This document shows, one piece after another, positions 22,186 to 25,287 of a DNA stretch of 64,000 nucleotides. The notes beneath the pieces are model-generated. The model did no database searches. It saw only the letters and a program-made list of their open reading frames with translations, and was not told the origin of the DNA. Position numbers and translations under genes: made by a program. Every line of letters begins with the position of its first letter. Within the stretch, counting starts at the first letter, position 1. The DNA is from Eledone cirrhosa (Eukaryota), in contig OZ024741.1 in assembly GCA_964016885.1 (NCBI GenBank), positions 138,136,001 through 138,200,000 on the forward strand, written 5' to 3'.

Positions 22186-22814
22186 ATATTTCTTTTTTTA
22201 ACGATCGACTTTCGTCAAATCGGACAAAGGAAACAATGTTTCCGTTGGTCTTTCTAATTGCTTAATACTCTCTATCGGTCGCGACTCCAGGTAGAAGGAA
22301 TATATATATACATTAATATATATATATATATAAAAATATATATATATATATATATATATATATATATATATATATATATATATAAATAAATAAAATGTAC
22401 GGTTGGAGTGGTATATAAAAATTAATTAAAAGAATAAATCAAAGTGCACAAACCTCCATTATACACATACACACAGATATATATATATATATATATATAT
22501 ATATATATATATATATATATATATATATATATATATATATGTATATATATATATGTATATATATATATGTATATATATATATATATATATATATATATAT
22601 ATATATATATATATATATGTATATATATATATGTATATATATATATGTATATATATATATATATATATATATATAAATTGGAATAAATGCTCTGAAATAG
22701 CGATATATATGTGAATATAGACATAGAATATTCGAAAATACTCTGTATGTTTATAATAAACATTTTGAAGACCTAATCGCTATAGAATAGAATACGTCAC
22801 GTATTACAATTAGA

Positions 22815-22902
22815 TTCTCGATAAAAGCAAGGGAAGTAATCTACGCGTTTCATTCTCGTTAGAAATCATCAGGACTACATATCCAGTGCTTTTATCGAGA
22901 AT
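22815..22902 (-). ncRNA. Extended type I HHR (also at +310 and +620)
   Basis: Reverse complement of the 23868-23955 motif; cores at 22836, 23146, 23456. Confidence 0.85.
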
Positions 22903-23867
22903 GACACAGCTAGAGACTTATAGAATACTTAGCTGTGTACAGGAACTGGTTTGAAAGAGCGGTTGCCGGTCCGGCAGAAATTAGAAATTGGAATAAATGC
23001 TCTGAAATAGCGATATATATGTGAATATAGACATAGAATATTCGAAAATACTCTGTATGTTTATAATAAACATTTTGAAGACCTAATCGCTATAGAATAG
23101 AATACGTCACGTATTACAATTAGATTCTCGATAAAAGCAAGGGAAGTAATCTACGCGTTTCATTCTCGTTAGAAATCATCAGGACTACATATCCAGTGCT
23201 TTTATCGAGAATGACACAGCTAGAGACTTATAGAATACTTAGCTGTGTACAGGAACTGGTTTGAAAGAGCGGTTGCCGGTCCGGCAGAAATTAGAAATTG
23301 GAATAAATGCTCTGAAATAGCGATATATATGTGAATATAGACATAGAATATTCGAAAATACTCTGTATGTTTATAATAAACATTTTGAAGACCTAATCGC
23401 TATAGAATAGAATACGTCACGTATTACAATTAGATTCTCGATAAAAGCAAGCGAAGTAATCTACGCGTTTCATTCTCGTTAGAAATCATCAGGACTACAT
23501 ATCCAGTGCTTTTATCGAGAATGACACAGCTAGAGACTTATAGAATACTTAGCTGTGTACAGGAACTGGTTTGAAAGAGCGGTTGCCGGTCCGGCAGAAA
23601 TTAGAAATTGGAATAAATGCTCTGAAATAGCGATATATATGTGAATATAGACATAGAATATTCGAAAATACTCTGTATGTTTATAATAAACATTTTGAAG
23701 ACCTAATCGCTATAGAATAGAATACGTCACGTATTACAATTAGATTCACATATATATCGCTATTTCAGAGCATTTATTCCAATTTCTAATTTCTGCCGGA
23801 CCGGCAACCGCTCTTTCAAACCAGTTCCTGTACACAGCTAAGTATTCTATAAGTCTCTAGCTGTGTC

Positions 23868-23955
23868 ATTCTCGATAAAAGCACTGGATATGTAGTCCTG
23901 ATGATTTCTAACGAGAATGAAACGCGTAGATTACTTCCCTTGCTTTTATCGAGAA
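23868..23955 (+). ncRNA. Extended type I HHR (also at +310, +620, +930)
   Basis: TTCTCGATAAAAGCA-ctggatat-GTAGTC-CTGATGA-T TTCT AACG AGAA T-GAAA-CGCG-TA-GATTAC-ttccct-TGCTTTTATCGAGAA; cores at 23892, 24202, 24512, 24822. Confidence 0.9.
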
Positions 23956-25287
23956 TCTAATTGTAATACGTGACGTATTCTATTCTATAGCGATTAGGTC
24001 TTCAAAATGTTTATTATAATCATACAGAGTATTTTCGAATATTCTATGTCTATATTCACATATATATCGCTATTTCAGAGCATTTATTCCAATTTCTAAT
24101 TTCTGCCGGACCGGCAACCGCTCTTTCAAACCAGTTCCTGTACACAGCTAAGTATTCTATAAGTCTCTAGCTGTGTCATTCTCGATAAAAGCACTGGATA
24201 TGTAGTCCTGATGATTTCTAACGAGAATGAAACGCGTAGATTACTTCCCTTGCTTTTATCGAGAATCTAATTGTAATACGTGACGTATTCTATTCTATAG
24301 CGATTAGGTCTTCAAAATGTTTATTATAAACATACAGAGTATTTTCGAATATTCTATGTCTATATTCACATATATATCGCTATTTCAGAGCATTTATTCC
24401 AATTTCTAATTTCTGCCGGACCGGCAACCGCTCTTTCAAACCAGTTCCTGTACACAGCTAAGTATTCTATAAGTCTCTAGCTGTGTCATTCTCGATAAAA
24501 GCACTGGATATGTAGTCCTGATGATTTCTAACGAGAATGAAACGCGTAGATTACTTCCCTTGCTTTTATCGAGAATCTAATTGTAATACGTGACGTATTC
24601 TATTCTATAGCGATTAGGTCTTCAAAATGTTTATTATAAACATACAGAGTATTTTCGAATATTCTATGTCTATATTCACATATATATCGCTATTTCAGAG
24701 CATTTATTCCAATTTCTAATTTCTGCCGGACCGGCAACCGCTCTTTCAAACCAGTTCCTGTACACAGCTAAGTATTCTATAAGTCTCTAGCTGTGTCATT
24801 CTCGATAAAAGCACTGGATATGTAGTCCTGATGATTTCTAACGAGAATGAAACGCGTAGATTACTTCCCTTGCTTTTATCGAGAATCTAATTGTAATACG
24901 TGACGTATTCTATTCTATAGCGATTAGGTCTTCAAAATGTTTATTATAAACATACAGAGTATTTTCGAATATTCTATGTCTATATTCACATATATATATA
25001 TATATATATATATATATATATATATATATATATATATATATATATATATATATATATATATATGTATATATATATATATATATATATATATGTGTGTGTG
25101 TGAGTTTGTGTGTGTGAGTGTGTGTGTATGTGTATAATGGAGGTTTGTGCACTTTGATTTATTCTTTTAATTAATTTGTATATACCGCTCCAACTGTAGA
25201 TTTTATTTGCTTTATTAAGGTGGTTTTTTACCACCCATTATCTGACATAATTTATTATGTCTTTCTCTCATTACTATGATTTAACAA

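Follow-up and report, generated by a model that had tools for sequence, protein, structure and literature searches.

The locus considered here raises the question of how a short unit carrying a hammerhead ribozyme came to stand in two tandem arrays joined head to head: as an error of assembly, by later amplification, or in a single insertion and, if the latter, from what template and by how many primings. It lies within a window of 64,000 nucleotides, the whole stretch of DNA that was analysed (C2:138136001-138200000), in a 3.0-Gb assembly that is rich in (TA)n. We consider it likely that the locus represents one insertion of a young family of 310-bp hammerhead units, made by what would be the reverse transcriptase-endonuclease of a Penelope-like element (PLE) that was primed from both nicked strands of the target on one circular RNA. 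The first-pass annotation of this DNA treated the locus as singular; on the contrary, it is ordinary within its own genome, the inversion being a family rule with a PLE signature (37 of 48 loci examined) and the palindrome being how this young family of non-LTR retrozymes normally occurs.

Structure of the locus and its ribozyme

The element is built from two tandem arrays of period 310 in opposite orientations, with 3.5 copies in the left arm and 4.0 copies in the right (Table 1). Unit positions (u1-u310) are numbered from 24054, and 23744 likewise corresponds to u1. By comparison with a reference unit at 24054-24363, each of the seven full units differs by 0 or 1 nt, and there are two substitutions in total, at 23452 and 24020, in agreement with the palindrome of near-identical units described in the first-pass annotation. 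The change of orientation, which had been placed at about 23746 over an ATTC microhomology, is indeed found there, and the earlier count of three hammerheads on one strand and four on the other is borne out by identical 31-nt cores at 23492, 23182 and 22872 on the minus strand, and at 23898, 24208, 24518 and 24828 on the plus strand. Although the palindrome is real, its extent had been overestimated (22390-25205): the element itself spans 22675-24997, and the outermost stretches, of approximately 90 bp each, are copies of an older dispersed repeat (41 matches) that (TA)n sets apart from the element. The exact 3' end of the right arm is ambiguous, because the unit letters at u7-14 themselves read ATATATAT. 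Other perfect fold-backs are present elsewhere in the window.

No stop-to-stop frame of at least 100 aa lies within 22780-25000, and those within 22422-22779 are read-through of the microsatellite. The ORF scan of the element thus indicates no coding capacity, no LTR/PBS/PPT layout is apparent, and, as an open reading frame for RT and GIY-YIG domains is absent, the element is not itself an autonomous PLE. It has the form of a non-LTR retrozyme, namely, tandem units of roughly 150-450 bp with a type I hammerhead in each: the unit measures 310 bp, and the core is intact in all seven full units. A search against Rfam at gathering thresholds gave no matches within the window.

Table 1. Positions of the element, its ribozymes and its immediate surroundings, in window coordinates
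Feature	Position	Strand	Remarks
Left arm	22675..23747	-	1073 bp; u210, three full laps, to u42; 3' end is the tail-bearing site A and faces (TA)n
Right arm	23744..24997	+	1254 bp; u1, four laps, to u14; 3' end is the tail-less site B
5'-to-5' junction	23744..23747	.	4-nt microhomology ATTC; orientation flips here
PLE-type 'tail'	22675..22702	-	u15-42; absent from the other outer end; notion taken from PMC8557442 and PMC11167929
Type I hammerhead, copy 1	23868..23956	+	stems Ia/Ib, U.U-closed stem II, palindromic stem III; predicted cut after 23928
Type I hammerhead, copy 2	24178..24266	+	predicted cut after 24238
Type I hammerhead, copy 3	24488..24576	+	predicted cut after 24548
Type I hammerhead, copy 4	24798..24886	+	predicted cut after 24858
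Type I hammerhead, left arm	23434..23522	-	carries a substitution in the internal loop (23452)
Type I hammerhead, left arm	23124..23212	-	
Type I hammerhead, left arm	22814..22902	-	
(TA)n target microsatellite, left part	22480..22674	.	
(TA)n target microsatellite, right part	24998..25091	.	
Older dispersed repeat, left copy of local inverted pair	22388..22475	+	host context, outside element
Older dispersed repeat, right copy	25118..25212	-	95% to left copy; host context

The ribozyme comprises a stem Ia of GTAGTC/GATTAC, an internal loop of CTGGATAT/TTCCCT, a stem II of TTCT/AGAA with an AACG loop, and a palindromic ACGCGT in stem III. These parts, together with the predicted cut in copy 1, match the earlier description, which had given 15 bp for stem Ib, where 16 bp are counted, and 4 bp for stem II, where the pairs and the loop are present but a closing U.U mismatch at 10.1/11.1 had been missed. 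The predicted fold of the 99-nt ribozyme region has a z-score of -5.3 (none of 200 shuffles being equally stable), and that of the cleaved monomer has a z-score of -3.5; in the predicted fold of the circle, stems Ia and Ib are paired with a probability near 1, and stem II with a probability of approximately 0.14. By analogy, the U.U closure and a stem III of 2 bp would predict weak activity of the monomer: an axolotl hammerhead analogue is reported to be 22% cleaved in 1 h (PMC7229834). Short palindromic stems III are described as acting as dimers (PMC4209133). Of nine predicted retrozyme dimers, only one is reported to have cleaved in vitro (bioRxiv 10.64898/2026.07.22.740005).

It had been suggested that read-through from either side would free monomers, which does not fit the geometry. 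The ribozymes point outward and, therefore, read-through from outside first transcribes the antisense arm; moreover, in the predicted fold of 23100-24600, a long duplex buries two of three sense ribozymes. All four ribozymes form in the predicted fold of a sense-only transcript. Since read-through would bury most of the ribozymes in this duplex, it is more likely, on these folding models, that productive transcripts, and the monomers released from them, start inside an arm.

Two-armed insertions across the family

The exact 31-nt core occurs 4,226 times in the genome, and an exact 24-mer from outside the ribozyme occurs 16,573 times, with no occurrences of either reversed control. The copy-number survey that the first-pass annotation had proposed thus reveals a multi-copy family of at least 16,573 units. 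Its loci are dispersed over many contigs, and extrapolation from the opening 36 Mb of C1 puts their number at roughly 1,400-2,900; an initial DNA search, with 167 matches at 26 loci, was a large undercount. In all, 48 loci were examined: that search supplied 26, the core pattern the 10 earliest on C1, and the 24-mer another 12, which complete the first 18 that it marks on C1. Of these, 37 are two-armed, eight are single-armed and three run into gaps; among 18 loci taken consecutively with the 24-mer over 0-36 Mb of C1, the corresponding figures are 14, three and one.

Without exception, the two-armed loci run minus-then-plus (37/37), such that the 5' ends are joined and the 3' ends face outward. 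The outer ends are almost as uniform: in 35 of the 36 two-armed loci with both ends resolved, one lies at u38-45 (site A) and the other at u2-14 (site B), with site A on the left or on the right at about equal frequency, the exception being L048, which has two A ends. All 14 two-armed loci of the consecutive set have one A and one B end (0.5^14 if the ends were independent). The outer 3' ends are nearly all bordered by (TA)n, save for the right end of L048 and the AT-rich site of L165. Arm lengths range from 86 to 4,510 bp, and the longer arm is that ending at A in 15 loci and that ending at B in 19 (34 loci). PLE hallmarks are reported to be inverted 5' copies, a one-ended tail of 30-40 bp and a bias towards microsatellites (PMC8557442), and the family displays each of them: an inverted 5' copy placed head to head in 37 of 37 two-armed loci, a 30-40-nt tail at one end only in 35 of 36, and AT-rich or microsatellite targets. 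The two-armed geometry is common to several families, as it is also seen in the neighbouring array at 18101-21876, and a 315-nt sister retrozyme family, identical in 209 of 320 columns (65%), has like geometry and homologous end sites.

Among 28 junctions from the first two sets of loci, 20 are clean and eight contain inserted bases (1-198 nt). The clean junctions have a mean microhomology of 2.25 nt, against 0.75 nt by chance, an excess that is significant with the eight insert-bearing junctions scored as zero (p = 1.2e-4). The junction phase varies from locus to locus, except that L158 and L165 both join over the 16-bp stem Ib repeat. Target duplications were sought at 22 loci: that at L165, an insertion outside (TA)n, is convincing (14-15 bp), one at L103 is plausible, and the other sites, in TA-rich repeats, gave no clear call. 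We also considered 5' ends at the ribozyme cut site as evidence, and set this aside since two cases among approximately 60 ends scored are too few.

Template, priming and joining of the arms

The variants carried by the family bear on the nature of the template. In an analysis of 46 loci and 110 kb (excluding L053 and L055), 74 variant sites, from 30 loci, are fixed throughout the two arms, whereas arm-specific sites in at least two units number zero. There are 27 haplotypes among the 46 loci, and loci drawn at random in pairs agree in only 8% of cases. The remaining variants are almost all singletons, at 0.038% per base, the exceptions being two long arrays with secondary amplification (C2:315.86 Mb and C2:353.81 Mb), where variants are common to part of the units. 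As variants occupy all units and both arms and singletons are few, the arrays were presumably born at once, from one short template, and recently; the youth attributed to the locus in the first-pass annotation is supported.

Changes that would break the ribozyme core or its pairs make up none of 35 inherited variants but eight of 42 singletons (Fisher p = 0.007), a difference to be read in the light of ascertainment, since an intact core served to select 10 of the loci and similarity to the query 24 of them, which favours the result for the core and, to a lesser degree, that for stem I. For random changes, the expected proportion is 18%. The inherited variants hit N7, loop II or position 10.1, or else preserve the stem pairs, and those at 10.1 replace U with A or G, allowing pairing with 11.1. 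From this sparing of the ribozyme, cleavage seems to matter for the spread of the family. It also weighs against a linear multimer, copied from a homogeneous mother array and left uncleaved, as the template for the same two-ended priming by a PLE. Such a template would yield nearly the same product, given that mother arrays are homogeneous. In addition, the ribozyme looks weak when modelled, and hammerhead mutants are reported to have left PLE insertion undiminished in vitro, with unprocessed RNA as the main substrate (PMC11167929). Nevertheless, unit-specific variants are mirrored in both arms at none of the two-armed loci, and the RNA of other animal retrozymes is described as mainly circular (PMC7229834); we regard the linear template as unlikely, and retain the circle.

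As to the enzyme, a search for GIY-YIG domains gave 10,596 first-look candidates, of which 37 were opened. The genome encodes PLEs with an RT, a CxxxxCxxC linker and, at the C terminus, a GIY-YIG domain; a CX2-5CxxC linker is present in L085, L088, L090, L093, L096 and L091, and altered in L094, the assignment to Neptune being by motif. In the L085 family, 131 scored copies have 97-100% RT identity and many have open frames of 775 aa, such that an intact, young autonomous PLE resides in the same genome. All three inverted PLE loci that were read (L090, L096 and L091; one per family) are outward palindromes that lie in (TA)n and have the tail on one arm only, and the hammerhead of L096 shares both the U.U closure and the palindromic stem III. 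A blastn comparison of the unit with the 37 GIY-YIG loci matched only the sister retrozyme and a non-coding hammerhead family, and following up both revealed no linked ORF. A family in which 26 of the 28 core nt are shared could not be tied to an ORF. Local alignments of the unit to four 3' ends did not exceed shuffles, the 3' ends of three ORF-bearing families gave no match above shuffles, and pLTR homology to an autonomous PLE family was not found among the 37 of 10,596 candidates opened. Since these families share no detectable 3'-end sequence with the unit, we do not name the partner PLE.

We propose that transcripts starting inside an arm would self-cleave after GUA, probably via dimeric hammerheads given the palindromic stem III, and that a host ligase would circularize the 310-nt monomer, by analogy with other retrozymes (PMC7229834). 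A Neptune-type PLE protein, likely a dimer, would then bind the circle in trans and nick a (TA)n or AT-rich target on both strands, whereupon one target 3' end would prime at site A and the other at site B, and each reverse transcriptase would roll around the circle for between 0.3 and about 14 laps. The two cDNA 3' ends would anneal through 1-5 nt of complementarity, with repair filling in to give the palindrome; a single-armed copy would arise if only one cDNA were captured. A purified PLE is reported to nick and extend both strands of AT-rich DNA in vitro, and to start reverse transcription at two internal sites bounding the tail, with a dimer predicted (PMC11167929). Such a two-site, two-strand reaction, conducted on a 310-nt circle, would produce the observed ends, laps and 5'-to-5' join, and the strict pairing of one A with one B end suggests a dimer, the subunits of which are set on two sites of one RNA. 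On balance, we favour the fuller proposition that a dimeric PLE primes both target strands, with one start site each, on a single ribozyme-made circle, with both reverse transcriptases rolling at once, and that the head-to-head inversion and one-sided tail would thus be the obligatory product of normal PLE insertion.

The first-pass annotation had invoked rolling-circle reverse transcription of a ribozyme-processed monomer, which is still the best reading, followed by a template switch of one cDNA, which is not. With a single priming, the second arm would come from fold-back of the cDNA or such a switch, its outer end being set by the endonuclease (compare the self-priming in PMC3846280). If so, one arm should be a copy of part of the other, and this was assessed in circular coordinates for 34 two-armed loci (excluding L048 and L154). 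Containment alone is compatible with fold-back in 25 loci, but in the other nine, including the locus under study, neither arm lies inside the other, which excludes fold-back of a read, contig or cDNA there. There are hints of self-copying, in that L158 and L165 join exactly over the stem Ib repeat despite their different haplotypes, L154 repeats its own junction, and site B overlaps the internal, target-like ATATATAT. On the other hand, either arm can be the longer (15 versus 19), the copy would have to halt at the other site each time (35/36), and an antisense circle, as the target of a switch, presupposes a ribozyme on the minus strand, of which the sequence holds only a degenerate relic. 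As there are two fixed sites, one per arm, and the arms are not contained in one another, two separately primed cDNAs fit better than one, and a single priming is improbable.

Palindromes can undergo conversion between their arms, and the two long arrays noted above share variants over part of their units. Both points would suit a short insertion that was later amplified and homogenized as satellite DNA, through unequal crossover and arm-to-arm gene conversion (a route described in bioRxiv 10.64898/2026.07.22.740005). We judge this very improbable for the family, as variants elsewhere are in all units or in one, the junction phases are arbitrary while the outer ends are fixed, and the low rate of singletons leaves little time. 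Lastly, a fold-back artefact of assembly or library is scarcely credible, as the first-pass annotation had supposed in taking the inversion as real: a near-perfect palindrome in (TA)n-rich DNA, within a window that contains other perfect fold-backs and with its own junction absent among the matches (read pieces) listed for the examined runs, might arouse suspicion, but the arms are not copies of each other, their outer ends differ, the outer flanks have diverged by 5%, the same rule is seen at 37 loci, and a public run, X5, contains five further inversion joints, with 1-3 shared letters and phases unlike those of the examined loci.

Run X5, which we infer to be from the same species, also contains many variants and TA-joined ends (one at u45), and it is the only one of four runs examined to contain genomic ends. 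Family words are more widespread, the runs of 17 coded organism labels containing 47-71% of them. None of the runs listed as containing these words is recorded as RNA, which says nothing on expression in either direction. In X1 and X2, also among the four, there is one closed 340-nt contig each, with one difference and no flanks, for which low-level cross-contamination from a high-copy sample is the preferred explanation; these data speak neither for nor against horizontal transfer. The raw run X23 yielded 0 of 12.8 million reads, and counts as no test.

Relation to known systems

Non-LTR retrozymes are already known, as are inverted, tailed PLE insertions. An autonomous reverse transcriptase that copies retrozyme circles has been proposed, with PLEs named as candidates (PMC7229834), whereas the formation of tandem and inverted PLE structures, and their microsatellite bias, are called undefined (PMC8557442), and head-to-head structures are explained only by suggested self-priming on an antisense template (PMC3846280). 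In the open full-text literature searched, we found no description of retrozymes that are two-armed or bear a tail signature, nor of twin priming by PLEs, and PMC11722881 and PMC8490949 had nothing to add on these; the supplements of PMC7229834 and of the 2026 preprint may bear on orientation. In the text of PMC7229834, the only mention of 'palindrom' concerns the stem III loop, and the main text of the preprint (bioRxiv 10.64898/2026.07.22.740005) is without the words tail, orientation or palindrom-.

Owing to its short unit and long arms, each insertion preserves the two start sites, how many laps were run, the joint and the haplotype, so that the family provides countable data on two questions, namely, how inverted PLE structures form and how retrozyme circles are reverse transcribed. 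The one-A-one-B rule ties the in vitro result with a PLE (both strands, two starts and a predicted dimer; PMC11167929) to single genomic events. If the proposal is correct, thousands of loci constitute a genomic tape of the unsolved Penelope insertion step, and the first insertion-signature evidence of a PLE reverse-transcribing animal retrozyme circles in trans. The system also offers a small, defined substrate for reconstitution (a 310-nt RNA, a TA duplex and a natural PLE ORF from the same genome), and palindromes of this kind in long-read assemblies are not necessarily fold-back errors.

In the twin priming of L1, two target-primed cDNAs on one RNA join at a microhomology to give an inversion, and the proposed reaction resembles it in all three respects. 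The differences are that the RNA of L1 is linear and poly(A)-bearing and its second priming site is opportunistic, such that its arms do not overlap, whereas in the present family the two sites are fixed and each arm goes through one sequence many times over.

The metazoan non-LTR retrozymes (PMC7229834) are described as non-coding tandem units of 170-400 nt, with one type I hammerhead each, low GC content and thousands of copies, as here; further likenesses are the U.U at the base of stem II (axolotl HHR_Amex2), a short palindromic stem III and the presence of PLEs in the same genome. Their arrays are direct tandems, whereas the present ones are mostly two-armed, 5'-to-5', targeted to (TA)n and asymmetric in their tails, and cleavage and circles have been demonstrated for them, whereas they are predicted for the present family. 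The 2026 preprint (bioRxiv 10.64898/2026.07.22.740005) likewise proposes that PLEs mobilize animal retrozymes, with support from co-occurrence and pLTR phylogeny in vertebrates; in our case, pLTR homology was not found and the support is an insertion signature.

Finally, the EN+ PLEs of the Neptune clade (PMC8557442, PMC3846280 and PMC11167929) differ from the present family in that it has no ORF, its arms are many laps of 310 nt as opposed to a truncated copy of a linear element, and its hammerhead is fully extended, that of Neptune PLEs being minimal. Nonetheless, the two have in common a head-to-head inverted 5' copy, a tail of 30-40 nt at one end, AT-rich or microsatellite targets, microhomology joins, an occasional target duplication and a hammerhead near the 3' end.

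A predicted folding switch and the unit in public runs

At window positions 23866-23893, and in each 310-nt unit, the 5' strand of stem Ib matches the hammerhead core imperfectly in reverse complement. In the predicted folds of the nascent RNA, the core is paired with this strand as long as the partner 3' strand of the stem has yet to be transcribed; on this modelling, the pairing would constitute a co-transcriptional switch, taking the hammerhead from off to on.

The unit was also recovered from two public sequencing runs (X1 and X2), in each as a single closed contig of 340 nt (310 + 30 overlap), at depths of 365 and 6.7, respectively. 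Both runs are of differently labelled organisms, and the presence of the unit in them is likely to reflect contamination; less probably, the closed contigs represent a free circular RNA.

Further hammerheads and repeats in the window

The second hammerhead array of the window contains seven cores that appear intact and an eighth that is degenerate. Exact matches to its core number 10,718 in the genome assembly, and minus-then-plus pairs are numerous among the first 100 of these places. The inverted duplication at 21818-22185, which is perfect, reproduces the variants private to this array's last unit, and looks like a genuine local fold-back.

Additionally, there are features related to Penelope-like elements (PLEs): the two minimal hammerheads point away from each other, and, in the head-to-head palindrome, only the left arm carries an additional tail of ~33 nt. 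A 363-aa open frame (43434-44834, minus strand) appears similar to the 3' portion of LINE ORF2 sequences.

Features of the window, and related families elsewhere in the genome
Feature	Location	Strand	Details
Minimal hammerhead	12808	-	resembles that of the L096 PLE family
Minimal hammerhead	12890	+	resembles that of the L096 PLE family
Tandem array	16322-17758		56-bp period, about 22 copies
Second hammerhead array	18101-21876	-	~454-500 period; units contain (TA)n, variable in length
Inverted duplication	21818-22185		106 bp, centre (TA)n
Head-to-head palindrome	44700-45136		PLE-family 3' end, visually similar to those of L091/L097
Inverted repeats	5333-6014; 55495-57919; 61941-62354		200-310 bp
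Sister retrozyme family	L132:1582-1896; loci L112-L141		315-nt unit
Non-coding hammerhead family	L166-L189		26/28 nt of core shared with 310-nt unit

Comparison with related hammerhead families

The non-coding family (2,107 first-look candidates in the genome) has two 3' end sites, located in (TA)n; a search for an ORF linked to it found none. At L035, a two-armed locus of the main family, the 5'-5' junction holds 198 nt of captured foreign sequence (L035:2862-3059).

The hammerheads of the second array are alike in design to those of the main element, with a GUA triplet, a palindromic stem III and a 4-bp stem II closed by U.U. The sister family, with 2,646 first-look candidates, matches the 310-nt unit at 209 of 320 aligned columns; its arms are shorter than those of the 310-nt family, and the pair of end sites is homologous.
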